Shown here piece by piece: positions 1-25,201 of a stretch of 64,000 bases of DNA. The notes below the pieces were generated by a model. It had not been told where the DNA came from. It ran no database searches and saw only the letters and a program-made list of their open reading frames with translations. Within the stretch, counting starts at the first letter, position 1; each line of letters opens with the position of its first letter. A program made the position numbers and the translations under genes. The DNA is taken from NCBI GenBank assembly GCA_037440005.1, contig JBBIUY010000004.1:23673-87672 (forward strand), written 5' to 3'. Source of the DNA: Armatimonadota bacterium. Its GTDB lineage: Bacteria; Sysuimicrobiota; Sysuimicrobiia; Sysuimicrobiales; Kaftiobacteriaceae.

Positions 1-201
1 GACGATGTGGCCGTGTGCGTCCCGCCCGGCGATCACCTGGGCGCAGGGGCGGCCGAGGACCTCCGGGGCGGCGTAGCCCAGCAGGTCCTCGGCCGCGCGA
101 TTCCAGGCCACGATCACGTGGCCGGCGTCCACCGCGAAGGCCGGATCCCCGGTGCCGTCGACCAGTTCGGCGACATCGGTCACGATCACCGGGCGGGCCA
201 T
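1..201 (-). CDS. PAS-domain sensor protein, N-terminal part (gene runs off window start)
   Basis: Reverse-complement translation from ATG at 201..199 gives MARPVIVTDVAELVDGTGDPAFAVDAGHVIVAWNRAAEDLLGYAAPEVLGRPCAQVI..., a typical PAS core. The start lies 4 nt after the stop of the upstream cytochrome c gene. No stop codon occurs before the window edge. Confidence 0.5.
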   Translation of the reverse strand, partial: MARPVIVTDVAELVDGTGDPAFAVDAGHVIVAWNRAAEDLLGYAAPEVLGRPCAQVIAGRDAHGHIV

Positions 202-205
202 GGCG

Positions 206-547
206 TCACCGGGCCGGCTTGGAGGTCGGATCGCCCGGCAGGGTGCCGGCCCGGATCTCCGCGATGTTGGTGAAGCCGTCTTTGTCGGAGTCGAGTTTCT
301 CGATGGCCCGGAACGCCGCCTCCGCCCGGGTCGTCCCCTGCCGGGCCAGGTCGGCCCCGTAGGGGTTGACCTGTTTGGTGGGCGGCGTGGTGGTGTGGCA
401 GATCAGGCATCCGGCCTTGCCCAGGGCCGTGTCCTCCCGGGGCGAGTACAGGTTCCGGAAGGTGGTCAGGTCCGACGGCAGGGCCGCGGCCGTCGCGGTC
501 AGCAGGAGAAGTCCCGCTGCGACCGCCAGCGCGCTCGTGAGCCTCAT
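206..547 (-). CDS. Mono-heme c-type cytochrome (secreted)
   Basis: 113 aa. Signal peptide MRLTSALAVAAGLLLLTATAAA and a single CLICH (CXXCH) heme-binding motif. ATGA start/stop overlap with the upstream gene links it to the ccm operon. Confidence 0.8.
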   Translation of the reverse strand: MRLTSALAVAAGLLLLTATAAALPSDLTTFRNLYSPREDTALGKAGCLICHTTTPPTKQVNPYGADLARQGTTRAEAAFRAIEKLDSDKDGFTNIAEIRAGTLPGDPTSKPAR

Positions 548-1725
548 GGCGTCTCCTCCTCTCGGTGTGGTGTCCGGGGGTCCGCGACCGGCGCCGCCCC
601 GCCCCGGCGGGTCAGCTCCTCCACCAGCAGGGCGCGCCGGCGGCGGTAGTCCTCCGGCGGCACCTCTCCGGCCTCGTAGCGGTCGTCCAGGTCCGCCACC
701 AGCAGGATGAGGTCGTCTCGGGTCAGGAGGGGCTCCCGCCCGCCGGTGGGGAGGGCGGAGGAGCGGCGCCGCAGGAACGGGTAGACCAGGGCGCCGACCA
801 GGATGCCGACAAAGGCCGCCAGGACCAACCGGTGAGGAGCGCCGGCGGAGACGGGCAGGCCGGTCGCCGCGATGGCCACCTGCGCGCCCGGCTTCATCCC
901 CTCGCCCGAGAAGCGCAGGTACGCTCCCTCGTCGGTCTGCACCGGCGGCTGGGCGGCCAGGGGCGTGACCTCGAAGCGGGCCGCCGCGTGGCCAAAGACC
1001 TCGACCCGGTCGGTGGGCAGGTCCAGCGTCCGCAGGATCCGGGCGCTGCGACCCGAGGCCGGGACCAGGTAGCTGTAGCCGATCTGCCGCATCCCGGGCT
1101 TGACGTCCATGGTGTCCACCAGGACGCCGCCGGCCACCGAGGCGCAGCACTCCATCAGGCCCTCCAGGAACTGGACCCGGGTGGCTCCGGGCGGCAGGGT
1201 CAACCGCAGAGTCTCCCTCCTGCCGTCGGGACGCGGGGTGGTCCCGACGAACGTGCGGTCGGTGGTGTTGGTGACGACGAGCAGTTCCGCCACCTGCACG
1301 CCCCCGGCGGCGGGCTCGACGATGATGTGATGGACGTCCACCCGCAGCACCGCCGGGTCGGTGGTGGGCTCGTAGACCCGCAGGGTCACCTGTTTGCGGG
1401 TTTCGCCGGCGCGGAAGGCGAGGGGTTCGCTGTCGTAGTCCCCGCCCCGGTACTTGACGTTGACCACGTAGGTCCGGTCGGCCGCGGCGGGAACCGTGAA
1501 GGAGAACAGGCCGGCGGCGTCGGTGGTGGTCTGGAGGCCGTCCACCTGGGCGGTGCCGGCATAGGCGGTCAGCGTCACCGGCTGGCCGGCCACAGGCCGG
1601 CGACCGCCCGTGAGGTTGACCACGGTGCCGGTGATGGTTCCCACCGCCGGAGCCTGTTCGGCGGCCGCGGCGGCCGGCCAGGCTGCCCCGATCACCAAAA
1701 CGGCGACGATCGCCCAGATCCTCAC
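544..1725 (-). CDS. Secreted membrane-anchored protein with CarboxypepD_reg-like beta-sandwich domain (unknown function, in ccm operon)
   Basis: 393 aa. Signal peptide MRIWAIVAVLVIGAAWPAAAAA; motif TITGTVVNLTGG...TDAAGLFSF typical of the carboxypeptidase-regulatory fold. C-terminal TM helix LVLAAFVGILVGALVYPFL followed by a charged cytoplasmic tail. 4-nt overlaps with both neighbouring genes. Confidence 0.55.
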   Translation of the reverse strand: MRIWAIVAVLVIGAAWPAAAAAEQAPAVGTITGTVVNLTGGRRPVAGQPVTLTAYAGTAQVDGLQTTTDAAGLFSFTVPAAADRTYVVNVKYRGGDYDSEPLAFRAGETRKQVTLRVYEPTTDPAVLRVDVHHIIVEPAAGGVQVAELLVVTNTTDRTFVGTTPRPDGRRETLRLTLPPGATRVQFLEGLMECCASVAGGVLVDTMDVKPGMRQIGYSYLVPASGRSARILRTLDLPTDRVEVFGHAAARFEVTPLAAQPPVQTDEGAYLRFSGEGMKPGAQVAIAATGLPVSAGAPHRLVLAAFVGILVGALVYPFLRRRSSALPTGGREPLLTRDDLILLVADLDDRYEAGEVPPEDYRRRRALLVEELTRRGGAAPVADPRTPHREEETP

Positions 1726-2132
1726 GGCGCGCCTTCCTCCATCGCCGGACGGCCGCAGGACGGGCAGAACCGGGCTCCCGGCGGACGCCGCTGGCCGCAG
1801 GCCGGGCAGCGCCGCCTGGCCCTCGCCGCGCGGATTTCCTGCTCGAGGGCGGTCTCCGCCTCCGGCGCGGGGCGGGACCGCGGGTGCAGGGCTTCCACCG
1901 CCCGGGCCTCATAGCGGGCCCGCAGCCGCGCGTAGTCGTCCGGGGAGAGCTTGCCCGTGGCGAAGTCGAACTCCAGTTCGCGCAGGGCGCTGAAGGCGGC
2001 CGCCTTGGCCCGCGCCGCCTCCTGCGCGGGATCCGCGCGCTCGCGGGCCGCCGGGGCCGGGGGCCGCAGCAGCGGCCACAGGATCAGCCCGGCCACGGCG
2101 GCGACCAGCGCCAGCTCGGCCAGCAGGATCAT
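1722..2132 (-). CDS. Small membrane protein with C-terminal zinc-ribbon (unknown function, in ccm operon)
   Basis: 136 aa. N-terminal TM MILLAELALVAAVAGLILWPLL, a coiled-coil-like middle and a CPACG...CPSCG double CxxC motif. Start lies 4 nt after the ccmH stop and the gene overlaps the downstream gene by 4 nt. Confidence 0.5.
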   Translation of the reverse strand: MILLAELALVAAVAGLILWPLLRPPAPAARERADPAQEAARAKAAAFSALRELEFDFATGKLSPDDYARLRARYEARAVEALHPRSRPAPEAETALEQEIRAARARRRCPACGQRRPPGARFCPSCGRPAMEEGAP

Positions 2133-2136
2133 GCCC

Positions 2137-2582
2137 TCAGTCCTCCCACTGCTCCAGTTCGCGCTCCAGCCACGCCCGTTGCCCGGGCGTCAGGGCGGGC
2201 GGGAGATCGGCGGAGGGCCGCTCGGACCGCCGCGACCACAGCGCGGCCAGGGCCGTCACCGCCGCGGCGCCGGCGACCAGGGCTGCGTAGGGCCCCCACC
2301 AGGCCACCAGGTTGAACCCCCGGCGCGGGGGAGCGGACAGCACCGCCTCCCCGTACGCGTCCACCAGGGCCGCCCGGATCTCGGCGTCGGTCCGGCCCTC
2401 GTTTTGCAGGCGGCCGATGGCGGCCAGCATCCGGTCCCGCGGTCCGCAGACGGGGTGGGTGCAGGTGGCCAGGGTGAGCCCGCACCCGCACTGACAGATG
2501 AACTGGTCGGCCAGGCCGCCGCCCGCGCGGGCGCCCGCGGGCAGCACCAGAAGCCCCAGCAGTGCCGCCAGCACCGCCGCCC

Positions 2583-2586
<4 letters not shown>
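2137..2586 (-). CDS. ccmH: Cytochrome c-type biogenesis protein CcmH/CycL-like
   Basis: 149 aa. Signal peptide, Cys cluster FICQCGCGLTLATCTHPVCG in the periplasmic domain, C-terminal TM segment. ATGA overlap with ccmF. Position immediately after ccmF is typical for ccmH. Confidence 0.6.
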
Positions 2587-4556
<1,970 letters not shown>

Positions 4557-4567
4557 GGGGATCCTCC

Positions 4568-4966
4568 TCAGCCTCCCGGCGCGGCCGCTTCAAACTTGGA
4601 CGGGCACTTGGCGAACAGCCGCTCGGCCACAAAGCGGGCGCCGTCGAAGCGACCCTCCACCACCACCTCCGCGCCGGGCTTGAAGGTGTCGGGCACCACC
4701 CCGCGGTAGGCGACCGCCACCTGCCGGGCGCCGTCGGTGACCCGGAACTCCAGCCGGCCGGCCGCCGGGTCCCAGGTCACGCTGCCCGGGGCCACGGTGC
4801 CGCCCAGGCGGATGGCGGCGCCGCCGATGGTCCCGGCGCGGTCCAGCAGCTCGCCCACGGTCATGTAGTAGGCCATGCTGCTGCGGGCTCCGGTGAAGGC
4901 GAGGTAGCCCCCCGCCGCCACGAAGACCGCCACAGCCAGCACAAACCTGCGGGTGGCGCGCCTCAT
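4568..4966 (-). CDS. ccmE: Heme chaperone CcmE, variant with Cys in place of the heme-binding His
   Basis: 132 aa. N-terminal TM anchor and OB-fold region (TVAPGSVTWDPAAGRLEFRVTDG...VVVEGRF). C-terminal motif LFAKCPSKFE aligns to canonical LAKHDENY. Start chosen at MRRATRRF (ATG 4966..4964), an ATGA overlap with ccmD. Confidence 0.8.
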   Translation of the reverse strand: MRRATRRFVLAVAVFVAAGGYLAFTGARSSMAYYMTVGELLDRAGTIGGAAIRLGGTVAPGSVTWDPAAGRLEFRVTDGARQVAVAYRGVVPDTFKPGAEVVVEGRFDGARFVAERLFAKCPSKFEAAAPGG

Positions 4967-5094
4967 CGCCGGTCCTCCTCTCCCGGCAGCCGCGCCTGCA
5001 GCGCCCGGCCCAGCCGGTGCAGGTACAGCACGTAGGCGAACAGACCACCCCACACGATGGCGTATCCCGCAAACATCGCCTCCAGGGGCGTCAT
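4963..5094 (-). CDS. ccmD: Heme exporter protein CcmD (small membrane protein)
   Basis: 43 aa, MTPLEAMFAGYAIVWGGLFAYVLYLHRLGRALQ..., a single TM helix. ATGA overlaps with both ccmC upstream and ccmE downstream. Confidence 0.55.
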   Translation of the reverse strand: MTPLEAMFAGYAIVWGGLFAYVLYLHRLGRALQARLPGEEDRR

Positions 5095-5840
5095 CCTGCC
5101 ACCTCCCCGGCTCCGGCGCGCACCCCCGACCGGCCCGCCCGCGCGGTCAGCCGGTCGGCCACCACCATCTGCTCCCGGCGCAGGCTGACCAGGATCACGT
5201 AGAGGATCGTGAAGGCGACCACGTTCACCACCAGGGCGTGGAGCATAGCCGGGTGCAGTCCCGATCCTACGCCCTCCGCCCCCACCACCACCGGCAGCGG
5301 GTGCAGCGACCGCCACCACAGCACCGAGAGGTAGATGAGGGGGATGTCCAGGAAGCCCACAATGCCCAGGACGGCGGCGAAGCGGGACGGCTGGGTCCCC
5401 GTCCCCCCATAGGCCCGCACCATCAGCGACGCCACGTAGATGAACCACAGCAGGAAGGTGGTGGTCAGGCGCGGATCCCAGCTCCACCACGTCCCCCAGG
5501 CGTACCGGCCCCACACCGACCCGCTGGCGATGGCCAGGGTGGTGAACACCACGCCCACCTCGGTGCTGGCGTGGGCGGTCAGGTCCCAGGCGCGCCGGCG
5601 GGTCCCCAGGTAGCCCACGCTGGCCGCGCAGACGACGGCAAAGGCCAGAAAGCCCACCCACGCCGCGGGAACGTGCACGTAGAAGATCCGCTGGGCCGCC
5701 CCCATGGTGCGTTCCTCGGGAGCGTACAGCAGGGCCATGTACAGGCCCGCCAGGAGCAGCGCGCTTCCCGCGGCGATCGCCGCCGCGCGCCAGTCCGCCC
5801 GGGCGGGCCTGGCCAACTCTCGGTGGCTGTCCGGCGGCAT
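5091..5840 (-). CDS. ccmC: Heme exporter protein CcmC
   Basis: 249 aa with the Trp-rich WWD motif AWGTWWSWDPRLTTT and 6 TM helices. Confidence 0.9.
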   Translation of the reverse strand: MPPDSHRELARPARADWRAAAIAAGSALLLAGLYMALLYAPEERTMGAAQRIFYVHVPAAWVGFLAFAVVCAASVGYLGTRRRAWDLTAHASTEVGVVFTTLAIASGSVWGRYAWGTWWSWDPRLTTTFLLWFIYVASLMVRAYGGTGTQPSRFAAVLGIVGFLDIPLIYLSVLWWRSLHPLPVVVGAEGVGSGLHPAMLHALVVNVVAFTILYVILVSLRREQMVVADRLTARAGRSGVRAGAGEVAG

Positions 5841-5841
5841 C

Positions 5842-6519
5842 TCACTCCTCCAGCACGTATTCGAACACCACAGACCCCACGACGGCGATCACCACGTCGA
5901 AGGCCGCCAGGATGCGGAGTCCCGGCAGGATGGCCGCCAGCGGGCGTCCGGCCAGGAGTTGGGCGGTGGCGCCGGCGGCGCTGAGGAGCACCGGGGCCGC
6001 CACGGGCAGCAGCAGAACGGGCAGCAGCACTTCCCGCATGCGCGTGTGCACCGACATGGCCGAGAACAGCGTGCCGGATGCGACCAACCCCGCGCTGCCC
6101 AGGACCAGCACCACCGCCAGGGGCCCGGCGGCCCGCCCCGGGGACACGCCGCCCAAGACGGCCAGGGCCGGGACCACCAGCGCCTCCACCGCCAGCAGGA
6201 CCAGCAGGGTGCTGGCGGCCTTGGCCACGTAGATCAGGGCCGGGTCGAACGGGAACAGGCGCAGGGCCTCCAGGCACCGCTCCTCCCGTTCCAGCGCGAA
6301 GGTCCGGGACAGCCCCAGGAGGCTGGCGAAGATCAGGGTCACCCACAGCATCCCCGGCGCCACCGCGGCGGCCTGGCCGGGGGCGGGAGAAAAGGCGAAC
6401 GTGAAGACCACGGTGACCAGCAGCGCAAACACCCCCATCGCCGACAGCATCTCCCGGGTCCGCAGTTCCAGGACCAGGTCCTTGCCCACCAGCAGCCCCA
6501 CGGCCCGCAGGGCGCTCAT
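5842..6519 (-). CDS. ccmB: Heme exporter ABC permease CcmB
   Basis: 225 aa polytopic membrane protein. Start at MSALRAVG (ATG 6519..6517) overlaps the ccmA stop in an ATGA arrangement. Confidence 0.8.
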   Translation of the reverse strand: MSALRAVGLLVGKDLVLELRTREMLSAMGVFALLVTVVFTFAFSPAPGQAAAVAPGMLWVTLIFASLLGLSRTFALEREERCLEALRLFPFDPALIYVAKAASTLLVLLAVEALVVPALAVLGGVSPGRAAGPLAVVLVLGSAGLVASGTLFSAMSVHTRMREVLLPVLLLPVAAPVLLSAAGATAQLLAGRPLAAILPGLRILAAFDVVIAVVGSVVFEYVLEE

Positions 6520-7259
6520 CGGTGGGCCCCCACCAGATCGGCGTACAGCCGCTCGGCGGCGCCCGGGTCGGGGAACCCGTTGAGCCCCTGGTAGGCCACC
6601 GCGCCGTCCACCAGGATCACCACCCGGTCGGCCAGGGCCAGGCCCTGCTCGATGCTGTGGGTGGTCAGGACCAGCGTGCGGCTTCCCCGCATCCGTCCCA
6701 GCAGGGCGGTCAGCAAGGCGGCGGCCGAGCGGTCCAGGCCCACGAAGGGCTCGTCCAGCAGCAGCAGGGGCGGGTCGTGCACCAGCGCCCGGGCGATGCT
6801 CAGCCGCCTGACCATGCCGTGGCTGAAGGTGCGGACCAGATCGTGGCGGCGCTCCCACAACCCCACCGCCTCCAGCAGCACCTCGGCCCGCCTGTCCGGC
6901 GTGTCCACCCCAAAGCCGCGCGCGGCGAAGACCAGGTTTTCCATCGCCGTCAGCCCCGCGTACAGGTAGCTGTGGTGGGAGACGACGCCGAGGCGCCGGC
7001 GCAGGGACGGGTCCTGCCAGGGATCCCGGCCAAACAGGCGCACCCGGCCGGCGGTGGGGCGCATGAGGGCGGCCAGGATCTTCACCAGGGTGGTCTTGCC
7101 GGCGCCGTTGGGGCCGAAGATCACCACCGCCTCGCCGTCGGGGACGTCGACGGTCACCCCCCGCAGCGCCTGCACGGGGCCAAAGGCCTTGACGAGATCA
7201 CGGGTCTGGATGGCGTGCACGCGCGCCCGCCGCCGTACGTTTCCTCTGTGCGCTTCCAC
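6516..7259 (-). CDS. ccmA: Heme exporter ABC ATPase CcmA
   Basis: Walker A GPNGAGKTT, ABC signature FSHGMVRRLSIA and Walker B LLLLDEP. The start may instead be the internal GTG at 7211 (VHAIQTRDL). Confidence 0.85.
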   Translation of the reverse strand: MEAHRGNVRRRARVHAIQTRDLVKAFGPVQALRGVTVDVPDGEAVVIFGPNGAGKTTLVKILAALMRPTAGRVRLFGRDPWQDPSLRRRLGVVSHHSYLYAGLTAMENLVFAARGFGVDTPDRRAEVLLEAVGLWERRHDLVRTFSHGMVRRLSIARALVHDPPLLLLDEPFVGLDRSAAALLTALLGRMRGSRTLVLTTHSIEQGLALADRVVILVDGAVAYQGLNGFPDPGAAERLYADLVGAHR

Positions 7260-7377
7260 CGCCTACGGTAGGGATCGGCAGCGGGGCGGGGTATCCGGCA
7301 CCTGCCCGATTTCCCGTCGCGGCGGGAACCGACGCCCGTTCCCGACCCACGGCCCGGGCATCCATCGGCGGACCGAG

Positions 7378-7405
7378 CCGGAATCGGGCCCCAGACCGAT
7401 TCCGG
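7378..7405. promoter_or_regulatory. Perfect 10-bp inverted repeat (CCGGAATCGG-N8-CCGATTCCGG) in the divergent ccmA / MopB-remnant intergenic region
   Basis: Exact dyad symmetry read directly from the sequence. It sits between two divergently oriented loci, so it is a candidate operator or hairpin. Confidence 0.4.
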
Positions 7406-7450
7406 GCCTGCCCGTTCGGGCCATAGGGTAGGGGGCGAAATGACGACGCC

Positions 7451-9143
7451 GTGGACCGTGTTCGGGGTGTTCCCGTGCGCATCCGTCGGCGCACCTTCCT
7501 GACCCCCTCCGCGGCCGCGGCGGGCGCGGTGGCCGGCGCCCACCTGGTTCCGCGCCGGCTCACCGCCTTGCTGGCCCGGTCGTCCGGAGCGCCGGCGGGA
7601 CAACCGGCGGACGAGTGGGTTCCCACCACCTGCTGGATCGGCAAGCAGGACTGCGGGATCCTGGCCCGGCGGATCAACGGCCGCGTGGTCGAACTGGAGG
7701 GGCACCCCGGGAACCCGCTCAACCGCGGCACCCTCTGCCCCAAGGGCGTGGCCCAGATCATCGCGCTGTACGACCCTCACCGGGTGAAGGCGCCGCTGAT
7801 CCGGACCAACGAGAAAGGCGTGCCGGGGACATGGCGCCAGGCCTCCTGGGACGAGGCCCTGGACCTGGTGGCCCGGCGGATCCGGGAGGCGCGGGCGAAG
7901 GACCCCCGGCTGGTGGTCTGGCAGAAGGGCCGCAGCAAGGCCAAGGCCTTCTACGATGAGGCGTTCGTCAAGGCCTCGGGCGCCACGAAGCTGCACCACG
8001 GCGCGTTCTGCTCCGACGCCGGCTACCGTGCCAGCGAGTACACCGTGGGGATCTCCTGCGTTCTGCACCCCGACTTCCGCCACACCCGCTACCTGCTGGC
8101 GTGGGGGTGGAACGGCACCAACGCGGGCGGGAACATGTTGTGCTGGATCACCTGGCCCCAGCAGATGGCCGCCGCCCGGGAGCGGGGCATGAAGATCGTG
8201 GTCATCGACCCGCGCCTGCGGGGGATGGGGCCGTTCGCCGACGAGTGGCTGCCCATCCGCCCCGGCACCGACCTGGCGCTGGCCCTCGCCCTGTCTCACG
8301 AACTCCTGCGCCAGGGCGCCGTGGACCGGGAGTACTTGGCCCGCCACACCAACGCCCCCTTTCTGGTGGGGCCCGACGGATTCTTCGTGCGCCTCGGCGG
8401 GCAGGAGCAGATCTGGGACCGCCGCAGCGGCCGGCCCCGCCCCGCCGACGCCCCCGACGCCGACCCGGCCCTGGAGGGCGAGTACATCGTCGGGGGGAGG
8501 TTCGGGCGCGGCCGGTGTTCGCGGTGTTCGCCGAGCACGTGGCCCGCTACAGCCCCGAGTGGGCTGCCGGGGTCTGCGGCGTCCCGGCGGAGGCCATCCG
8601 GCGGGTGGCCCGGGAGCTGGGAGAAGAGGCCCGCATCGGCAGCACCATCGTCCTGGACGGGGTGACCCTGCCGTACCGTCCCGTGGCCATCATGGCCTAC
8701 CACATGGCCCAGCAGGAGCTGGGGTTCCAGGCGGTGCGGGCCATGATCACCGTGATGATGCTGCTGGGAGCGGTCGGGGCCGTGGGCGGGCAGCGGTTCG
8801 ACGTGGGCGGGTGGACGATTCACGAGAACTTTCACCTGCTCCTGGCCTTTTACCTGTTGCTGCGCCAGTTCCTCGCCGGGCGCAGCCGCATCGCGGTGCC
8901 CGTGGCGGCCGGGGTCCTGGTGAACGTCGCCGCGGTGGGCAAACGCATCCTGATCGTGGTTCCCTCCCAGACCCACGGGGCGATGCTGCCCTATCCGCCC
9001 GGGTGTACGCCCCCACCTGGGTGGAGTACAGTAGCGTGGGAGGGCTGGTGGCTCTGGGCACGCTGCTGTACGTCCTGTTCGCCAAGGTGTTTCCCCTCAT
9101 CGACCTGCCGGAAGACGTGTCGGAGGGAGCTCGACGACGGTGA
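7451..9143 (+). pseudogene. Decayed molybdopterin-oxidoreductase-like (MopB/ActB1-like) gene fused by internal deletion to the 3' end of an NrfD/ActC-like gene, with homopolymer frameshifts
   Basis: Frame 2 (7451 to ~8505) carries TAT motif RRRTFLT and an N-terminal CWIGKQDCG...LCPKG domain. A -1 shift in a GGGGGG run (~8505) moves into frame 1 with MopB motifs YSPEWAAGVCGVPAEAIRRVARELGE and LLGAVGAVGG. That frame runs directly into NrfD-type C-terminal helices: IAVPVAAGVLVNVAAVGKRILIVVP matches the intact paralogue's ATAASVLVNVGAWWKRYVIIVP. A second shift in a CCCGGG run (~8990) moves into frame 0, where YAPTWVEYSS...LFAKVFPLIDLPE matches the intact gene's C-terminus YTPTWVEWSI...LFSKLFPIVSLWE. 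No intact ORF encodes either protein. Confidence 0.6.
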
Positions 9144-9376
9144 GGACGCTCATCACCCGGACGCTGGTGGTGGTGGGCCTGGCCACGGCCACGGTGAGTT
9201 TCGCCCTGGCCCTGCCGCTGCGTCTGCCGGGCGCGGCGGCGGGGATCCCGGCGGTGGCGCGCCCGATCCCGTACCTGCCGGCGGCGTTCATCGCGGGGCT
9301 CATGCTGGTGTTCCTGGCGGCGGTGGCCTACGAACTGCTAACCGACCGCGACACCACCGAGCCGTGGCGGCCGTAG
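9140..9376 (+). CDS. Small 2-TM membrane protein; truncated paralogue of the 173-aa subunit encoded at 28088..28609
   Basis: 78 aa with a GTG start in a GTGA overlap with the preceding remnant. Its signal-like N-terminus and C-terminal segment PIPYLPAAFIAGLMLVFLAAVAYELL resemble MRWPGSAALLAALALTASAA... and PYPVPPLALLGVLVGAIWATYGYIVFLL of the 28088 product. The periplasmic domain between them is missing. Confidence 0.4.
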   Translation: MRTLITRTLVVVGLATATVSFALALPLRLPGAAAGIPAVARPIPYLPAAFIAGLMLVFLAAVAYELLTDRDTTEPWRP

Positions 9377-9386
9377 GGAGGACCCC

Positions 9387-10024
9387 ATGGGCCTGCGGGG
9401 TGTGGCCTGCGCGCGGGCCGAGGCGTACCAGGCGCTGGCGCAGGTCCTCCACTACCCCGACGGCGGGCGTCTGACCACCTTCCCCCGCACGGCCGCGCGC
9501 CTGCGGCGGCGGATCGATGCCCTCGCGGGCCTGGCGCAGTTCGATCCCGCCCGGCGCCTGGTGAGCCTGCTGGAGGCTGTGGCCCGGCAGGACCCCCGGA
9601 CCGTCCAGGCGACGTACGTCCGGGTGTTCGGGGTGGACGGAGCGGGCGGACGGCCCCCTGCGAGTCGTACTACCGGTCGCGCTCTCCCGCCGACGTTCCC
9701 CTGTTGATGGCCGCCCTGGAGCGCGTCTACGCCGCCGCCGGGCTGGCGGTCGATGCCGCAGGGGGTCTGCCGCCGGACCACCTCGTCGTCCAGATGGAGT
9801 TCATGGCCGTGCTGTGCGCCCGGGAGGGGGCGGCGTGGCGATCACCCCGCGGGGCGGCGGACGAGCTCGTCGCAGAGCAGCGGTTTCTCCGCTCCCACTG
9901 GCTGTCTGGCTGCCGGCGCTGGGCTCGGACGTCGCCCGGTGGGACCCGGTGGGCGCGTATGCCGGGATCGTCGGGTGTGCGGCCGACCTGGTGCGGCACG
10001 ACCTGGCGTTCCTCGCCGCCCTGA
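9387..10024 (+). pseudogene. TorD/DmsD-family redox-enzyme maturation chaperone, frameshifted
   Basis: Frame 0 (9387 to ~9650) shifts at a CCCCC run (~9655) into frame 2, where PCESYY...PPDHLVVQMEFMAVL carries the TorD-family hallmark motifs. The C-terminal part (WLPALGSDVARWDPVGAYAGIVGCAADLVRHDLAFLAALMRAS) lies in yet another frame near 9900. No ORF longer than 107 aa covers the family. Confidence 0.5.
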
Positions 10025-10072
10025 TGCGCGCCAGCGGCGCCGGTGTGCCGGCGGGGGAGGCCCTCCGGCCAT

Positions 10073-10643
10073 GAGCGGGCCCGGCGCCGACCGTCCGGCC
10101 GTCGGGGTCTTTTTGTGCGAGCACCTGGAGGCTCGCTGGGGCCTGCCGGTCTCGCAGGTGCAGCGGTGGGCGGCCGGCACGCCGGCCCTCACCCTCCGCG
10201 TGGTCAGGGGGGTGTGTGAGTCGCCGCGGGCGCTGCAGGAGCCCCTGGCCCGGAGCGGTGTGTCCCGGGCGGTGCTGGGGCTGTGCCGCCGGCCCGCCTC
10301 CCGGGCGGACCTGCAGGCCGCGGTCCGCCGGGCCGGGCTAGATCCCGCCGGCGTGGAGGTGGTGGACCTGGGCACCTACGCCGCGCGGGCCCACCGTCCT
10401 CCCGACGCGGGCCGCAAGGCCGTCATCCTGCTGGCCGGCGCCGTCGCGCGGGCCCGGGCGTTCGTCGGCAGCCTCCCCCACCATCACGTGCCGGTCTTCC
10501 CCCGGACCGTCAGCCGGAGGTCTTTACTGACCCTGTCGGCGCTGGAATACCGGTCGGCTCTCCCCAAGATCGAGGTCCGCCGGACCGGCGCGGTCTCCGA
10601 CCGCCCCCCCGGCGGGGCCGGTGGTGGCCCGGGTGAGCGATGA
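10073..10643 (+). CDS. Hypothetical protein with a degenerate MvhD/FlpD-like domain in which most Cys ligands are lost
   Basis: 190 aa. Segments VGVFLCEH, TLRVVRGVCESP, GVSRAVLGLCRRPAS and GLDPAGVEVVDLG align with the MvhD motifs vaFcCnwC, vRiiRVmCsGRv, GADGVLVsGChpGDC and GIDPeRvrv. Only 3 Cys are retained. Confidence 0.35.
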
Positions 10644-10884
10644 CCGCTCGGAGGGAGCGTTCGCCCCCACCGACATCCCCACTCTGGCTGACCACCTGCT
10701 GGCATCCGTCCTCGGTCCCCCGGCACAGTCCGCCCCGTAGGCCTCCCGGCGGCCCCCGGGCGGGCGCGCCGACGGCGTTCACGGATTCTTCACGGGTGCT
10801 TCACGGCCGGTTCTCCGGGGAAGGCTAGCGTCGACGGTGAGGGCGGGAAGCCCGAATACCTCTGACGCAGGGAGGAGGATGACG

Positions 10885-11574
10885 ATGTCTGTGCGGCTCC
10901 TGTACGTGGCTGCCGGCGTGGTCGCGCTGGCGGCGGCAGTGGCCCTCCCGGCCTTCAGCCAGCCCCGGTTGGGCGGCTGGGGCGGGTGCGCGGGTTTCGG
11001 CCCCACGGCACCGGCCGCGGGGCCCCTGACCATCGACGCCGCAGCGGACCGCGCCCGGCAGGCGCTGGCGGCGTGGGGGAACCCCGATCTGGCGGTGAAA
11101 GAGGTCATGGAGTTCAGCAACCACTTCTACGTGCTGGTGGTCGAGCGCAGCACGGGCCGCGGGGCGATGGAGCTCATCGTGGAGCGCTCCGGTCTCGTGC
11201 GCCCCGAGCCCGGTCCCAACATGATGTGGAACCTCAAGTACGGCCACATGGGCGGGACGGGCTGGGGCATGATGGGCGGCCGGGGTATGATGGGACCCGG
11301 CTGGGGAGGCGGCCGCGCGCCCGGCGGGTGGGGGCCCCCGCAGGCCGGTGAGCCGCTGACGGCGGAGCGGGCGCGGGAGATCGCCGCCCAGTTCCGGAAG
11401 TCGGCGTTTCCCGGCGCCGAGCCGGACGAGCACGGGGTGGCTTTCTACGGATACGTCACCTTTGACGTGGAGCGCGCCGGGCGGCCGGTCGGCATGCTGA
11501 GCGTGAACGCCTCCACCGGCCAGGTCTGGTACCACGCCTGGCACGGGGCGTTCGTCCGGGAGAAGGAGTTCTGA
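10885..11574 (+). CDS. Secreted protein with two PepSY-like domains joined by a Met/Gly-rich linker (candidate Cu-binding)
   Basis: 229 aa. Signal peptide MSVRLLYVAAGVVALAAAVALPAFS; linker GHMGGTGWGMMGGRGMMGPGWGGG. A GGAGGAGG RBS lies 6 nt upstream of the second in-frame ATG. Confidence 0.55.
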   Translation: MSVRLLYVAAGVVALAAAVALPAFSQPRLGGWGGCAGFGPTAPAAGPLTIDAAADRARQALAAWGNPDLAVKEVMEFSNHFYVLVVERSTGRGAMELIVERSGLVRPEPGPNMMWNLKYGHMGGTGWGMMGGRGMMGPGWGGGRAPGGWGPPQAGEPLTAERAREIAAQFRKSAFPGAEPDEHGVAFYGYVTFDVERAGRPVGMLSVNASTGQVWYHAWHGAFVREKEF

Positions 11575-11588
11575 GGAGGGATCCGACG

Positions 11589-11909
11589 GTGAGCGGACGC
11601 GATCTGGCGGTGGTGCTGCTGGTGGTCCTGGGCGCCCTGATCCTGCTGCCCGCCCTGGGGATGGCGGTGGGGGGATGCGGCGGGTGGATGGGGCCGGGCA
11701 TGATGGGTCGCTGGGGCTGGGGCCCGTGGGGAGGAGGGTGGGGACTCGTGGCGATGCTGCTGGCGCTGGCGGGGATCGTGCTGGTGGTCCTGGCCCTGGG
11801 GCGCCGGGAGGCCAGGGGGGACGAGGCGCTACAGATCCTGCGGCGCCGCCTGGCCAGCGGGGAGATCACCCCGGAGCAGTTCGAGGAACTCCGCAAGACG
11901 CTGCAGTAG
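11589..11909 (+). CDS. SHOCT-domain membrane protein with Met/Gly/Trp-rich loop
   Basis: 106 aa. Two TM helices flank GGCGGWMGPGMMGRWGWGPWGGGWG. The C-terminal ILRRRLASGEITPEQFEELRKTL is a SHOCT motif. GTG start with a GAGGAGGGA RBS. Confidence 0.6.
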   Translation: MSGRDLAVVLLVVLGALILLPALGMAVGGCGGWMGPGMMGRWGWGPWGGGWGLVAMLLALAGIVLVVLALGRREARGDEALQILRRRLASGEITPEQFEELRKTLQ

Positions 11910-11967
11910 ATCCCGGCCTCCGGGAGACCGGCCGGTCTCCCGGAGGCCGATGCGGGTGTGACCCACC

Positions 11968-12708
11968 GTGGGCCGACGGGTGGTGCTGGTGGTGGAGGAC
12001 GAGCCGGAGATCGCCGACGCCCTGCGCCAGTACCTGGAAAAGGACGGGTACACGGTGGCGGTGGCCGGCGACGGGCAGCGGGCCCTGGCCGAGTTCGCCC
12101 GCCTGCGGCCCGACCTGGTCCTGCTGGACCTGATGCTGCCCGGCCTGGACGGATGGGAGGTGACCCGCCGCATCCGCCAACAGGGGGTCACGCCCATCAT
12201 CATGCTCACCGCCCGCAGCGCCGAGGTGGACAAGCTGGTGGGCCTGGAGCTGGGCGCCGACGACTACATCACCAAGCCCTTTTCGCCCCGGGAGGTGGTG
12301 GCCAGGGTCCGGGCGGTGCTGCGCCGCGCCCGGGGCGGCGAGCCGGCGGCGGAGGTCGTGCGGGTGCACGACCTGGAGATCGATCCGACCCGGATGGAGG
12401 TGCGCCGGGGCGGGGTCCCGGTGACCCTCACGCCCACCGAGTTCAAACTCCTCCACGTCCTGGCGCGCCATCCCGGGCGGGTGTTCACCCGCATGCAGCT
12501 CATCGACCAGGTGCAGGGGTACGCCTTCGAGGGCTACGAGCGCACCGTGGACGCCCACATCAAGAACCTGCGGCGCAAGCTGGAGCCCGACCCCCGCCGC
12601 CCCCGCTACGTCCTCACCGTGCGCGGCGTGGGCTACCGGTTCGCCGAGGAGACCCGGCCCGGCGAAGGCGCCCCCGACGCGCGCCGGGCGGAGGACTCCC
12701 ATGGGTAG
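11968..12708 (+). CDS. OmpR-family response regulator (CusR/CopR-like)
   Basis: Receiver domain with phospho-acceptor region VLLDLMLPGLDGWEV, and a winged-helix output domain (LTPTEFKLLHVLARHPGRVFTR...YRF). Confidence 0.9.
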   Translation: MGRRVVLVVEDEPEIADALRQYLEKDGYTVAVAGDGQRALAEFARLRPDLVLLDLMLPGLDGWEVTRRIRQQGVTPIIMLTARSAEVDKLVGLELGADDYITKPFSPREVVARVRAVLRRARGGEPAAEVVRVHDLEIDPTRMEVRRGGVPVTLTPTEFKLLHVLARHPGRVFTRMQLIDQVQGYAFEGYERTVDAHIKNLRRKLEPDPRRPRYVLTVRGVGYRFAEETRPGEGAPDARRAEDSHG

Positions 12709-14337: not shown

Positions 14338-14798
14338 TGGCCCCGTTCCGGATCCCGGATGCGCGGCAGGTCCGCCGGCCGCTGCTGGCGGGGGTGCTGT
14401 CCGCCGCCGGGCTAGCCGCCGCCTACAGCCTCGTCATCGGGCTGGCATCGCGGTCCTGGCCGCACCTGGCGGAGCAGTGGCGGACCGACGGGGCGTTCGT
14501 GGCGCTGGTGGTCGCCGGCTTCGGCATCCAGGTGGGCCTGTACCAGCACGTCCGGCGGGTGGTGCGCGCCCCCGCCGCGGTGGCCGCCGGCGGCACGGCC
14601 ACCTCCACCGCGGCCATGGTGGCCTGCTGCCTGCACCACCTGTCGGACGTGGCCCCACTGATCGGGCTGGCGGGGGCGGCCGCGTTCCTGACCCGCTACA
14701 AGGTGCCGGTGATCCTGGTCAGCCTGGGGGCCAACGGGGTGGGGATCGCCTGGATGGTGCGCACGCTCCGCCGCGCGCGGACGGCGGCGTGCGGCTGA
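14337..14798 (+). CDS. Hypothetical 4-TM membrane protein with intramembrane CC-x-HH motif
   Basis: 153 aa. ATGA-type overlap with the preceding gene. Motif AMVACCLHHLSDVAPLIG lies in a predicted TM segment. Confidence 0.45.
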   Translation: MAPFRIPDARQVRRPLLAGVLSAAGLAAAYSLVIGLASRSWPHLAEQWRTDGAFVALVVAGFGIQVGLYQHVRRVVRAPAAVAAGGTATSTAAMVACCLHHLSDVAPLIGLAGAAAFLTRYKVPVILVSLGANGVGIAWMVRTLRRARTAACG

Positions 14799-14849
14799 CG
14801 GGACCTGGTGCCTCGGGTCGCGCCGGCGGCGCGGTCTCAGGGCTGGCGG

Positions 14850-15242
14850 TCAGGCCCTCTGCACCTGCAGGGTGCGCAGAGGGCAATAGGCGTCCCGCCA
14901 CATCTTCTGCTGCCGGGCCCACTGGGCCCACACGTCGTCGCCCAGCTCGGCCCGGCGGGCGGCGGAGAAGATGCGGATGTCCTCTCCGCGGCTTTCGGCG
15001 GCGAAGTGCACCAGCAGGATGCACGGGAACTCCGGGCACAGGCCGCAGTGCTCCACCCGGTGCTCCCGCGCGCAGGAGTAGATCGGGCAGATCTTCTCCA
15101 AGCGGACCTCGCCCTGGGTGGCGCAGGTGGCGGCCAGGGCCTCGTACCAGGCGCTGCCTTCCCAGTACAGGCCGCAGACGGCGGCAAAGTCCTCCGGCGC
15201 CTGTTTGGGGGACGCGCCGGTTGACCTCCCGGATACGGTCAT
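14850..15242 (-). CDS. Cys-rich protein, DUF3795-like (putative Fe-S/Zn binding)
   Basis: 130 aa; cysteine cluster CPIYSCAREHRVEHCGLCPEFPC. Confidence 0.45.
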   Translation of the reverse strand: MTVSGRSTGASPKQAPEDFAAVCGLYWEGSAWYEALAATCATQGEVRLEKICPIYSCAREHRVEHCGLCPEFPCILLVHFAAESRGEDIRIFSAARRAELGDDVWAQWARQQKMWRDAYCPLRTLQVQRA

Positions 15243-20213: not shown

Positions 20214-20939
20214 ATGACGCGGCACGCGGGATGGGTGGTCCTGCTGTGGGTGGTCCTGACCGCCCTGGGCCTGGTGGGGGCCGCGCGGGTGGACCTGCTG
20301 CCGGTGGCCGCCGCCCGGGAGGCCCGCATTATCGACGACGCCTTCCGGTTCCTGATGCTGCTGGCCGTGCCGGTGTTCACCTTCGTGCTGGCCGTCCTGC
20401 TGTACGCCGTCGCCGCCTTCCGCGCCCGCCGGGAACCTCCGGAGGACGGGCCCCCGCTGTGGGGGCGGTCGGCGGTGCCGTGGGTCTGGCTGGCGGTCAC
20501 CAGCGCCCTGGCCGTGTACGTGATCGTCAATCCGGGACTGCGGGGTCTGGCCGAGCTGCGGTCCGACCGACACGCGGACCTGGTGGTGCGGGTGGAGGGG
20601 TCCCGGTGGGTGTGGCGGTTCGTCTATCCCGAGTCGGGCGTCACCAGCCGCGAGCTGGTCCTGCCGGTGGGCCGGCGGGTGCGGTTCGACGTGACCGGGG
20701 TGGACGTGGTGCACTCCTTCTGGGTCCCGGCGTTCCGGGTGAAGGTGGACGCGGTGCCCGGAATGACGACCTCCGTGTACGTGACGCCCACCCGGACCGG
20801 AGATCAGGCCGGTGATGTGAATTTCCGGGTCCAGTGCGCCGAGCTGTGCGGCCTGGGCCACCACCTGATGGCCGCGCCGGTGCGGGTGGTGGATCCCGGG
20901 GCGTTCGAGGCGTGGGTGGCCGGGGGCCGGTCGCCCTAG
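20214..20939 (+). CDS. coxB: Cytochrome c oxidase subunit II (CuA, no cytochrome c domain)
   Basis: 241 aa with two TM helices. CuA ligands VHSFWVP ... QCAELCGLGHHLM (H...C-x-E-x-C-x3-H-x2-M). Confidence 0.9.
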   Translation: MTRHAGWVVLLWVVLTALGLVGAARVDLLPVAAAREARIIDDAFRFLMLLAVPVFTFVLAVLLYAVAAFRARREPPEDGPPLWGRSAVPWVWLAVTSALAVYVIVNPGLRGLAELRSDRHADLVVRVEGSRWVWRFVYPESGVTSRELVLPVGRRVRFDVTGVDVVHSFWVPAFRVKVDAVPGMTTSVYVTPTRTGDQAGDVNFRVQCAELCGLGHHLMAAPVRVVDPGAFEAWVAGGRSP

Positions 20940-20981
20940 CCGGAGGCGGCGCGGCCGGGGGGAGACGTTTGCCGATCCGGC

Positions 20982-22829
20982 GTGGCGAGAGGTGAGCGGT
21001 CCGTGCGAGCGATCGTGCGCGGGATAGGGTGGGGGGCGGCCGGCTTCGCGCTGGGCGCCCTGGCGGCGACGGCGGCCGGGTGGGCGGCGGGGCGTCCGCC
21101 GCGGGCCGAGGTCCTGGTGACCCTCGGGTACGTCGCCGGGCTGACCGGCTGGCTGCTGGGCGTCGGCCTGTGGGACGCCTGGGCCCGGGGGTGGTTCGGG
21201 CTCCCCGTCCGCCACGAGCCCGATCACACGTGGCGGCGCTACTTCCGGTTCACCACCGACCACAAGGTCATCGGCGTGCAGTACCTGGTGACCTTCGTGG
21301 TGCTGTTCGTTCTGGCCGGGGCGATGGCGCTGGTCATGCGGGTGGAGTTGGCGGCCCCGGGGCCGACGGTGATGAGCGCCGGCGCCTACACCCACCTGAT
21401 GAGCCTGCACGGCATCATCATGATCGCCGTGGCGGTGGCCACCATCCTGGGGGGGTTCGGCAACTACCTGGTGCCGCTCATGATCGGGGCCGAGGACATG
21501 GCCTTCCCGCGCCTGAACGCCCTCAGCTACTGGCTGGTGCCGCCGGTGGCCGTCCTGCTGGTGGCCACGCCGTTGGCCGGGGGGTTCGACACCGGGTGGA
21601 CCGCCTACCCGCCCCTCAGCGAGGTCAACGCCAGCGGCCAGGTCCTGTTCAACCTGGCGGTGATCACCTTCGGGCTGTCCTCCATCCTGGGCGGGATCAA
21701 CTTCCTGGCCACCATCGTGGGCCTGCGGGCGCCCGGGATGACCTGGCGGCGGCTGCCCATCTTCGTGTGGGCGGTGTTCGCGGCGTCGCTGATCAGCGTC
21801 ACCGCCACCCAGTACCTGGCGGCGGGGCTGCTGATGGTCCTGCTGGACCGGGAGGCGGGCATGGCGTTCTTCGCCGCGGCCCGGGGCGGCATGCCCCTGC
21901 TGTACCAGCACATCTTCTGGTTCTACTCGCACCCGGCGGTGTACATCATGATCCTGCCCGCCTTCGGGCTGGCCCTGGAGGTTCTGACCCACTTCTCCCG
22001 CAAACCCCTGTACGCCTACCCCTGGGTGGTGGGGGGATTTCTGGGGATCGTGGGGCTCAGCTTCGTGGTGTGGGCGCACCACCTGTACACCAGCGGCATG
22101 CGGGAGTCGCTGCTGGGGCCGTTCATGGCCACCACCGAGCTCATCTCCATCCCCACCGGGCTGGTGTTCCTGGCCGCCCTGGGGACGCTGTGGATGGGCC
22201 GGCTGTGGCTGCGGACGCCGATGCTGTTCGCCCTGGGGTTTCTGTTCAACTTCCTCATCGGGGGCGTGACCGGCATCTTCAACGCCGACGTGCCCACGGA
22301 CCTGCACCTGCAGGACACCTACTTCGTGGTCGGGCACTTCCACTACACCATCGTGGGCGGGATGATCTTCGCCCTGTTCGCCGGCCTGTACTACTGGTTC
22401 CCCAAGATCACCGGGCGGATGTACGACGAGCGGCTGGGCCGGGTGCACTTCTGGTGGATGTTCCTGGCCTACAACGCCACCTTCCTGCCCATGTTCTGGG
22501 CGGGGGTGCACGGGATGAACCGGCGCATCGCCGACTACCCGGCCCCCCTGGCCGGGGTGAACCTGTGGATCTCGGCGATGGCCGTCGTGCTGGGGGCCAG
22601 CGTCGTGGTGTTCCTGTGGAACGCGGTGGCCAGCTGGATCCGCGGGCCGCAGGCCGCGGCCAACCCCTGGGGCGCCCGCACCCTGGAGTGGCAGGTGCCC
22701 TCGCCCCCGCCCGAGGGCAACTTCCCCCACCCGCCCCGGGTGGTGGGCGACCCCTATGCCTACGGGGTGCCGGGAGCCGCGCACGCCGTGGTGGCCGCCG
22801 CCGGCGGGGCCGGGGAGGGAGGGGGGTAA
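20982..22829 (+). CDS. coxA: Cytochrome c oxidase subunit I (A-type heme-copper oxidase)
   Basis: 615 aa with GFGNYLVPLMIGAEDMAFPRLN and conserved His ligands. It has a ~70-aa N-terminal extension, so the start codon is uncertain (GTG 20982). Confidence 0.9.
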   Translation: MARGERSVRAIVRGIGWGAAGFALGALAATAAGWAAGRPPRAEVLVTLGYVAGLTGWLLGVGLWDAWARGWFGLPVRHEPDHTWRRYFRFTTDHKVIGVQYLVTFVVLFVLAGAMALVMRVELAAPGPTVMSAGAYTHLMSLHGIIMIAVAVATILGGFGNYLVPLMIGAEDMAFPRLNALSYWLVPPVAVLLVATPLAGGFDTGWTAYPPLSEVNASGQVLFNLAVITFGLSSILGGINFLATIVGLRAPGMTWRRLPIFVWAVFAASLISVTATQYLAAGLLMVLLDREAGMAFFAAARGGMPLLYQHIFWFYSHPAVYIMILPAFGLALEVLTHFSRKPLYAYPWVVGGFLGIVGLSFVVWAHHLYTSGMRESLLGPFMATTELISIPTGLVFLAALGTLWMGRLWLRTPMLFALGFLFNFLIGGVTGIFNADVPTDLHLQDTYFVVGHFHYTIVGGMIFALFAGLYYWFPKITGRMYDERLGRVHFWWMFLAYNATFLPMFWAGVHGMNRRIADYPAPLAGVNLWISAMAVVLGASVVVFLWNAVASWIRGPQAAANPWGARTLEWQVPSPPPEGNFPHPPRVVGDPYAYGVPGAAHAVVAAAGGAGEGGG

Positions 22830-22835
22830 TCGCTC

Positions 22836-23042: not shown

Positions 23043-23044
23043 CG

Positions 23045-23611: not shown

Positions 23612-23760
23612 CCGTCCCGCTCTGGCCCCCTCCAGGCCACGTCCCCTCCGCCGGGACTCCCTACCCGGCCGGGTAGGTGGCCGGACTACCCGCACGGGCG
23701 TTGTGCCCCGCCGTCTGCCCGGACTACCCTGGCGTCGGGCCGGTGGCCCGGAGGGGAGCC

Positions 23761-25185: not shown

Positions 25186-25201
25186 CGCCGGGAGGACACC
25201 C

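Follow-up and report, generated by a model that had tools for sequence, protein, structure and literature searches.

Positions 7451 to 10740 (plus strand) of the window, the whole 64,000-nucleotide stretch of DNA analysed here, very probably carry what is left of a Psr/Phs/Sre-like respiratory molybdoenzyme operon that was inactivated recently and no longer functions, as judged from comparisons of sequence with an intact relative. A complete syntenic orthologue of this locus is present in a sister bacterium from hot springs, Ca. Calidihabitans tengchongensis (locus L002), where the gene set from MopB to MoeA-MobB lies between the same flanking genes and blastn reveals synteny on both sides. 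Relative to this intact copy, the window has undergone two deletions (2,966 bp and 3,295 bp) and five frameshifts (near positions 8491, 9001, 9657, 9898 and 10606). The locus is an example of ordinary operon decay, with nothing unusual about it. As is typical of bacterial pseudogenes, its reading frames are disrupted, its deletions are flanked by microhomology and an intact orthologue persists in a sister lineage. Its lesions, likewise, all fall within a single functional unit, as in bacterial operon decay driven by deletion bias and homopolymer slippage.

Comparison with the intact operon

The L002 cluster comprises ten genes, which encode in order a cytochrome b, a multihaem cytochrome c, MopB (864 aa), an FeS subunit (250 aa), NrfD (435 aa), a 77-aa protein, TorD (229 aa), a polyferredoxin (529 aa), MobA and MoeA-MobB. 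The ORFs for MopB, the 4Fe-4S subunit, NrfD, TorD, polyferredoxin, MobA and MoeA+MobB were named by using Pfam and NCBIfam. Blastn aligns window 795-7221 with L002 1-6418, window 7334-8841 with L002 9885-11386 (86%), window 8839-10554 with L002 14353-16079 (79%), and window 10550-12185 with L002 19375-21039, and it finds no counterpart in the window for L002 11387-14352 and 16080-19374. The resulting feature assignments are collected in Table 1. In L002, the cytochrome b and multihaem cytochrome c pair stands 5′ of MopB; this pair may have been either lost in the window lineage or gained in that of L002, which is the only locus to share the flanks.

Table 1. Remnant genes and lesions of the window locus, with identities and residue numbers relative to the L002 orthologues.
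Feature	Position in window	Strand	Basis or detail
MopB remnant, residues 1 to ~343	7451-8493	+	81% identity to L002 MopB; Pfam
Frameshift 1	8491-8497	+	+2 at G6 run relative to intact orthologue (pairwise alignment)
MopB remnant, residues 344-456, second frame	8494-8832	+	tblastn, 90% identity to L002 MopB
Deletion junction 1	8833-8845	+	blastn synteny and junction alignment
NrfD membrane-anchor remnant, residues ~333-435	8842-9143	+	tblastn, 86% and 63% to L002 NrfD
Frameshift 2	near 9001, CCC-GGG	+	-1; NrfD tail read from 9003
78-aa small hydrophobic ORF, intact	9140-9376	+	74% identity to L002 77-aa ORF (14661-14894)
TorD/NarJ-family chaperone, three frames	9387-10074	+	tblastn pieces, Pfam, indel alignments
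TorD residues 1-90	9387-9656		
TorD residues 92-176	9659-9904		
TorD residues 175-229	9907-10074		
Frameshift 3	near 9657, C5 run 9654-9658	+	-1 in TorD
Frameshift 4	near 9898	+	-1 in TorD
Polyferredoxin N-terminal 163 of 529 residues, HdrA-N-terminal/MvhD-like domain	10063-10553	+	77% to L002 residues 2-163
Deletion junction 2	10550-10556	+	blastn synteny and junction alignment
MobB C-terminal remnant, last ~63 codons of MoeA-MobB	10554-10740	+	alignments, translation
Frameshift 5	near 10606, C7 run	+	-2 in MobB remnant

The first portion of the MopB remnant matches Pfam Molybdop_Fe4S4 (E=1e-7) and Molybdopterin (E=3.5e-18), and it carries a twin-arginine leader (RIRRRTFL), an FS0 Fe-S motif (CWIGKQDC...LCPKG) and, within GAFCSDAG, a cysteine at the presumed molybdenum-ligand position. 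Of the domains found in L002 MopB (PF04879, PF00384 and PF01568), the window retains only PF04879 and a portion of PF00384. Beyond 8493 the ORF is read in the wrong frame until it stops at 8665, and the annotated product is a 396-aa protein starting from 7475. A preliminary description of this DNA had proposed that a MopB N-terminus with a TAT leader loses frame at a run of six G nucleotides, resumes in another frame, runs straight into the C-terminus of NrfD and shifts once more at a CCCGGG run. Each of these features was recovered, with the G6 run at 8492-8497 and the junction near 8840, close to the earlier estimate of ~8800.

Deletion 1 corresponds to L002 11387-14352 and removes MopB residues 460-864 along with the complete FeS subunit and NrfD residues 1-332. 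It fuses MopB residue ~459 to NrfD residue ~333 at a joint that shows 3-4 bp of microhomology, and leaves ~100 residues of NrfD in the window and no FeS subunit.

Homologues of the 78-aa ORF lie 3′ of NrfD in 18 fetched loci, L002 among them. The ORF is native and full length for its family, and its product is probably membrane-spanning. It had previously been taken for a shortened copy of the 173-aa subunit encoded at 28088, an assignment that we discard because blastp gives E=3.1 for that pair and the ORF instead matches its 77-aa orthologue. The adjacent TorD gene, whose middle piece matches Pfam Nitrate_red_del, is indeed split at a C5 run as had been described; however, it occupies three frames owing to the second -1 shift, which had been overlooked.

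The fragment downstream of TorD is not the ‘degenerate MvhD’ of the preliminary description. Rather, it is an intact-looking, HdrA-N-like N-terminus of the polyferredoxin that has been truncated by the second deletion. The fragment keeps its three conserved cysteines, and a profile of 34 orthologous N-terminal domains matches the HdrA N-terminal domain (5odc_A residues 4-132, E=5e-16). Neither the window fragment nor any of these 34 domains matches Pfam PF02662 (MvhD/FlpD) at E<=1. In the Hdr-Mvh structure, the HdrA N-terminal domain is itself reported to be MvhD-like.

Deletion 2 corresponds to L002 16080-19374 and removes polyferredoxin residues 164-529, MobA, MoeA and most of MobB, such that polyferredoxin residue ~163 is fused to the last ~63 codons of MobB. 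The joint again carries 3-4 bp of microhomology, the original MoeA-MobB stop codon is kept at 10738-10740, and both MobA and MoeA are lost from the operon at this locus, although further mobA or moeA genes, or another intact copy of the operon, might lie elsewhere in the genome. This second deletion, the fifth frameshift and the loss of the cofactor-finishing genes had been missed, whereas the lesions that had been claimed, namely those of a genuine pseudogene with a large internal MopB-NrfD deletion and homopolymer frameshifts, are supported by the L002 alignment. A comparison with the orthologous locus of a relative had also been suggested as a check; relative to the intact operon of L002, the reading frames of this locus are broken and essential parts are missing.

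Authenticity, timing and consequences of the lesions

Pairwise alignments with L002 located each of the five frameshifting indels at single-base level. Three of the five reside in G/C homopolymers, and the source is a MAG, as would be expected if the operon were intact in the organism and had been corrupted by homopolymer errors or mis-joins in the assembly. This explanation is nevertheless very improbable. Frameshifts affect 3 of the 20 runs of at least five G or C nucleotides in the locus versus 0 of 112 such runs in 23 kb of long ORFs (Fisher p=0.003), and there are no frameshifting indels within the coding sequence of 7.7 kb of aligned flanks. Furthermore, GCA_964489355.1 and a Logan contig of run SRR11582147 are base-identical to the window over the whole locus, including all lesions, and the three assemblies come from different pipelines, although they may share reads. 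Both deletion joints are located in unique sequence with short microhomology, and not in repeats that could be collapsed during assembly. The lesions are best interpreted as real mutations that would have been fixed under relaxed selection once the enzyme was dispensable. Programmed frameshifting was ruled out, given five shifts of differing sign across four genes, two deletions close to these shifts, and orthologues that read straight through.

Rates of substitution were used to place the loss in time. In comparisons with L002, the MopB remnant gives a dN/dS of 0.21-0.24, the NrfD tail one of 0.16 and the remaining pieces values of 0.37-0.50, versus 0.09-0.33 for the flanking genes. None of the 129 MopB columns conserved at >=95% is changed in the window remnant, and relative-rate tests are not significant. 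Because the MopB and NrfD remnants keep this signature of purifying selection (0.16-0.24), with all conserved columns unchanged and no significant difference in rate, we infer that the loss of the operon is recent when measured against the divergence from Ca. Calidihabitans tengchongensis. By a rough estimate, zero changes at conserved MopB positions is slightly below expectation for a locus with five small indels.

Some function might be retained by the MopB fragment (396-404 aa), the 78-aa ORF or a 190-aa HdrA-N-like fusion ORF, as each of these has an unbroken reading frame and appears as a gene in a public annotation. The unchanged conserved positions of MopB could be viewed in the same way, but recent inactivation explains them equally well. 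Moreover, the MopB fragment is devoid of domains III and IV and of the dinucleotide-binding domain (Pfam Molydop_binding, 733-835 in L002), its FeS and NrfD partners are gone, its TorD chaperone is disrupted, and deletion has removed MobA and MoeA from the operon. Residual activity is therefore highly unlikely, and it seems that no product encoded at the window locus would still work as a respiratory complex.

The preliminary description had read the locus as a decayed duplicate of the FeS-NrfD-173aa module at 25646-28609, recording descent of that module from a Psr/ActB-type (ActB1B2C) ancestor. Both loci do fall within the NrfC/NrfD superfamily, the FeS subunits share 40% identity, and the resemblance reported between the NrfD tail and the intact NrfD at 26545-28104 is genuine (47% over 47 aa, E=4e-8), although the L002 orthologue is far closer (84%, E=7e-31 by blastp). 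Duplication is scarcely credible given an intact positional orthologue in a sister species to which the remnants are 74-90% identical, compared with only 31-47% protein identity to the module (31% for NrfD), nucleotide similarity that is confined to two short FeS-motif stretches, and unrelated small proteins. The NrfD519 protein of the module is also closer (49-51%) to the NrfD proteins of two clusters from unrelated phyla (L001 and L060) than to the decayed lineage. The decayed operon is thus uninformative on the ancestry of the module.

The parent enzyme and the proposed course of its loss

In the intact operon, L002 12601-13353 encodes a Fer4_11 protein that is ArrB/DsrO-like, and L002 13357-14664 matches Pfam NrfD. 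The order MopB-FeS-(NrfD)-TorD-polyferredoxin recurs, as far as contigs reach, in the 80 loci that were fetched, which span many phyla of bacteria and archaea; ~17 of these loci give no NrfD match to the L002 query. Because this gene order recurs across the 80 loci, the long form of the operon is ancestral. MopB proteins from loci in Chloroflexota, Methylomirabilota, Actinomycetota, Nitrospinota, Acidobacteriota and several archaeal lineages are 56-77% identical to that of L002, and Lucifugimonas marina JH545 (L081) is a carrier of the intact enzyme in culture. The FS0 motif of this enzyme is invariably CxxGxxxC...C (CWIGKQDC), with only three cysteines, and the presumed molybdenum ligand is cysteine in 75 of 75 orthologues. 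Selenocysteine at this position was considered for homologues of 193-213 aa and was rejected, as these are contig-end fragments and every one of the 75 orthologues carries cysteine.

Among the named equivalogs of NCBIfam (PhsA, ArrA, TtrA and others), none scores above its cut-off with the parent MopB, the best being PhsA at 241 bits versus 694. The Sysuimicrobiota paper does not mention the enzyme, and searches of the literature by motif or keyword returned nothing useful. The nearest solved structure is PsrA of Thermus thermophilus PsrABC (PDB 2vpw, E=7e-40). Like members of the Psr/Phs group, for which PhsA is the best model despite falling far under the family cut-off, the parent operon specifies a TAT-exported MopB with a presumed molybdenum-ligand cysteine, a four-cluster FeS subunit and an NrfD-type anchor. 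It differs from them by adding the 77-aa protein, the HdrA-N-like polyferredoxin, MobA and MoeA-MobB, and by having only three cysteines in FS0.

Among the Sre proteins of Acidianus ambivalens, SreD is reportedly polyferredoxin-like and SreE is said to be a NarJ/TorD-like chaperone. The parent operon can be likened to this system by architecture alone, in that both begin with molybdenum, FeS and anchor subunits and perhaps share a polyferredoxin and TorD; however, TorD precedes the polyferredoxin in the parent operon. The sulfur reductase genes sreABCDE encode a molybdenum subunit, an FeS subunit, a membrane anchor and the accessory proteins SreD and SreE (PMC8551704). MopB-like, FeS and NrfD blocks are also common to the parent operon, ActB1B2C and Qrc, and the QrcB, QrcC and QrcD models match weakly. 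ActB and QrcB are not known to carry a molybdenum cofactor, and alternative complex III contains ActB as a fusion of MopB-like and FeS parts together with the haem subunits ActA/ActE and with ActF. No ActA/ActE-type haem subunits or other Act-type partners are found within the conserved core of the fetched loci. Because MopB and the FeS subunit are encoded separately, the presumed molybdenum-ligand cysteine is invariant, and MobA, MoeA and MobB are present in the operon, the parent enzyme is not ActB-like, contrary to the ancestry that had been proposed.

Ca. Geohabitans (L013), a second lineage of the same phylum, carries independent lesions in the same operon. Since MopB is widespread, the three-cysteine FS0 motif is invariant and the HdrA-N-like polyferredoxin is dedicated to the operon, we tentatively entertain the possibility that the parent operon specifies a respiratory molybdoenzyme whose substrate is still unknown, and that its independent decay marks a recent, niche-specific loss of an electron acceptor or donor. 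The two lineages in which decay is observed, that of the window and Ca. Geohabitans, are both hot-spring Sysuimicrobiota.

In the course of decay that we propose, the intact ancestor would have produced a bis-MGD catalytic subunit exported by the TAT pathway, an FeS subunit with four clusters and an NrfD anchor that interacts with quinone, along with the 77-aa hydrophobic protein, the TorD chaperone, the polyferredoxin and the cofactor-finishing proteins MobA and MoeA-MobB. Once the enzyme became dispensable, selection on the operon would have relaxed. Two microhomology-mediated deletions of ~3 kb each would then have taken out the FeS subunit, one half of the catalytic subunit and most of the anchor, as well as most of the polyferredoxin and MobA/MoeA, and the small indels would have broken the reading frames that were left.

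The main value of these findings lies in a corrected annotation and interpretation of the locus. The ORFs at 7475-8665, 9140-9376, 9387-9707, 9835-10074 and 10071-10643 should be regarded as fragments of one dead operon rather than as part of the respiratory capacity of this Sysuimicrobiota genome. Even if the parent enzyme does act on a substrate that is still unknown, the copy in the window is only a pseudogene. The locus offers a clean, datable operon loss, in which genes for an enzyme, its chaperone and its cofactor-finishing proteins were erased together and for which an intact sister copy serves as a reference. Characterisation of the intact family, which is widespread and apparently unnamed, could be worthwhile.

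An interrupted molybdoenzyme operon and its intact counterpart

Three-frame translation of the decayed locus, which lies in a window of ~73% G+C, reveals a coding signal that shifts between frames. The ORF from 7451 on the plus strand begins with a twin-arginine leader (RIRRRTFL), and Pfam matches identify it as MopB, with an Fe4S4 and a molybdopterin domain. After the first frame change, sequence typical of the middle of MopB (YSPEWAAGVCGVPAEAIRRVARELGE...LLGAVGAVGG) leads directly, without a stop, into hydrophobic NrfD-type sequence. Frame-by-frame translation and Pfam matches therefore find the features listed in the preliminary description where it had placed them.

A scan with the MopB N-terminus as query, covering a single genome for each species, gave 80 loci. 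The best of these, L002 (86% protein identity), belongs to Ca. Calidihabitans tengchongensis, phylum Sysuimicrobiota, and is collinear with the window on either side of the decayed locus. Its operon encodes MopB (864 aa), a 4Fe-4S subunit (250 aa), NrfD (435 aa), TorD (229 aa), a polyferredoxin (529 aa), MobA (222 aa) and a MoeA-MobB fusion (580 aa), all identified with Pfam and NCBIfam, as well as a small protein of 77 aa; every gene is uninterrupted.

Features of the decayed operon, its alignment with L002 and its surroundings (window coordinates unless L002 is named)
Feature	Location	Strand	Details
ccm cluster	544-7259	-	CcmA, B, C, E, F, H
Frame A	up to ~8493	+	MopB
Frame B	after ~8493	+	mid-MopB, then NrfD-type
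Frame C	from ~9003	+	VYAPTWVEYSS...LFAKVFPLIDLPE
78-aa ORF	9140-9376	+	
TorD/NarJ-like chaperone	9387-10074	+	three frames; middle piece matches Pfam Nitrate_red_del
190-aa ORF	10071-10643	+	
Frameshift	~8491		+2, G6 run
Frameshift	~9001		-1, CCC-GGG
Frameshift	~9657		-1, C5 run
Frameshift	~9898		-1
Frameshift	~10606		-2, C7 run
Deletion 1	L002 11387-14352		2,966 bp: MopB residues 460-864, whole FeS, NrfD residues 1-332
Deletion 2	L002 16080-19374		3,295 bp: polyferredoxin residues 164-529, MobA, MoeA, most of MobB
Aligned block	795-7221 / L002 1-6418		79% identity, ccm genes
Aligned block	7334-8841 / L002 9885-11386		86% identity
Aligned block	8839-10554 / L002 14353-16079		79% identity
Aligned block	10550-12185 / L002 19375-21039		80% identity
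245-aa and 106-aa ORFs	10837-11909		Gly/Met/Trp-rich repeats GWGMMGGRGMMGPGWGG in the first, similar Gly/Trp-rich stretch in the second; both conserved in L002
Cytochrome oxidase subunits II, I, III	20214-23611		
Four cupredoxin-like ORFs	23677-25645		
FeS-NrfD-173 aa module	25646-28609		
Two tRNA genes	40566-40649, 40774-40844	+	sole Rfam gathering-level matches in the window

Alignment of the window with L002 locates two deletions and, at base level, five frameshifting indels; all other indels within the remnants are multiples of three. Both deletion joints lie in unique sequence, with microhomology of just 3-4 bp. Because of deletion 2, the 190-aa ORF ends in MobB sequence (ALPKIEVRR...), and the remaining MobB tail can be translated through to its original stop at 10738-10740. 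The preliminary description was thus essentially right in its observation, and right to call a pseudogene marked by a deletion fusion and by frameshifts in homopolymers, but it understated the extent of decay.

Within the limits of each contig, the fetched loci repeat the core order MopB-FeS-(NrfD)-(small)-TorD-polyferredoxin. These loci represent many bacterial and archaeal phyla, their MopB proteins are 56-77% identical to that of L002, and in ~17 of them the L002 query finds no NrfD. Such wide recurrence of the core order argues that the long form of the operon is ancestral and the window form derived.

In L002, cytochrome b (411 aa) and multihaem cytochrome c (~422 aa) genes occupy 6419-9884, between ccmA and MopB, where the window has just 112 bp (7222-7333). 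Either a third deletion in the window or an insertion in L002 may account for this, L002 being the only locus with the same flanks. The System I cytochrome c maturation cluster immediately upstream of the dead operon looks complete and is intact; its gene names follow the annotation of an identical public contig (L082). Downstream, the C-terminus of the 106-aa ORF is SHOCT-like by eye alone.

Authenticity and age of the lesions

Frameshifts interrupt 3 of 20 G/C runs of at least five nucleotides in the decayed locus, a pattern that might be attributed to a generic assembler or homopolymer artefact. Such an artefact is unlikely: 13 long ORFs (23 kb total) have 112 such runs and no frameshift (Fisher p=0.003). 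Within 7.7 kb of aligned flanks, indels not divisible by three are all intergenic or at gene ends. Furthermore, every lesion recurs in two public assemblies that may share reads with that of the window: GCA_964489355.1, in which a 35-kb contig is 100% identical over window 1-11301, and a Logan contig of run SRR11582147, 100% identical over 7633-11231.

Against L002, from which the window is separated by a dS of ~0.3-0.5, dN/dS is 0.21-0.24 for the MopB remnants, 0.16 for the NrfD tail and 0.37 for the polyferredoxin domain (flanking genes, 0.09-0.33). Across 73 other orthologues, 129 MopB columns are conserved at 95% or more, and the window differs at none of them; relative-rate tests with six outgroups give no significant result. 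Together, these results indicate that the MopB and NrfD pieces were under constraint for almost the whole time since the split, and that inactivation is recent. For TorD (0.49) and the small ORF (0.50), the higher ratios may stem from relaxed constraint or from constraint that is weak by nature.

This operon also seems to have decayed, independently, in Ca. Geohabitans tengchongensis, of another Sysuimicrobiota genus (L013 10010-13458). There, MopB changes frame at ~residue 387, NrfD residue 65 is joined to FeS residue 61, and beyond NrfD residue ~151 the contig ends in IS3-like transposase sequence. In an Anaerolineae MAG (L054 8828-9876), NrfD is recovered by tblastn as two overlapping pieces (residues 6-160 and 160-355), which suggests another frameshift.

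Relation to the module at 25646-28609

The decayed operon had been described as a paralogue of this respiratory module, with a truncated small subunit. The module comprises an FeS protein with a TAT leader (300 aa; best NCBIfam model DsrO, 188 bits against a cut-off of 200), a 519-aa NrfD, for which DsrP is the best model, and a protein of 173 aa that gives a weak Ig-like match. It is of NrfC/NrfD type, without MopB or a haem subunit, and adjoins an oxidase.

Identity between the module and the decayed operon's lineage is only 31% for NrfD and 40% for FeS, and DNA similarity is confined to two short FeS-motif stretches. The pseudo-NrfD tail is 47% identical over 47 aa to the module's NrfD, versus 84% to L002. 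The 519-aa NrfD is closer (49-51%) to those of a MopB-plus-cytochrome c cluster (L001) and an FeS-NrfD pair (L060). Likewise, the 78-aa ORF shows no significant similarity to the 173-aa protein (E=3.1); its L002 orthologue is 77 aa long, and homologues follow NrfD in 18 fetched loci, including L002, so it is not a truncated subunit. By these comparisons the two loci are old, superfamily-level paralogues, and the pseudogene is not a degraded duplicate of the module. It says nothing about the ancestry of the module, which the preliminary description had sought to deduce from it.

The parent enzyme and its family

The "degenerate MvhD" reported earlier is related to the domain that begins HdrA, which has been described as MvhD-like. 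Neither this fragment nor 33 orthologous N-terminal domains match any Pfam model, but a profile built from these domains matches 5odc_A residues 4-132 in HdrA (E=5e-16). This domain opens the operon's 529-aa polyferredoxin (L002 15590-17179 and orthologues). Its three nearly invariant Cys are all kept in the window fragment; the domain is cut off from its protein, not degenerate.

The parent MopB reaches none of the NCBIfam equivalog cut-offs (best PhsA, 241 bits versus 694); among solved structures, Thermus PsrA comes closest (2vpw, E=7e-40). The Cys in GAF/YCSDAG, taken to be the Mo ligand, is kept in 75/75 aligned orthologues. The FS0 motif CWIGKQDC...LCPKG is invariant in 75/75 sequences (window 7620-7650; L002 MopB, 10010-12604; others), with an unusual Gly at the second-Cys position of the usual CxxCxxxC that is a family hallmark, not decay.

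The subunit list of the parent operon resembles that of the Acidianus sreABCDE sulfur reductase cluster in architecture only (PMC8551704). The parent enzyme is unlike ActB: its MopB and FeS subunits have a gene each, and in L002 and a second fetched locus (L004) the operon includes Moco-finishing genes.

The locus is a recent case of operon decay of the ordinary sort, in a Sysuimicrobiota genome assembled from a metagenome. Its value is modest: it offers a clean example of decay and draws attention to a molybdoenzyme family that is widespread but unnamed.
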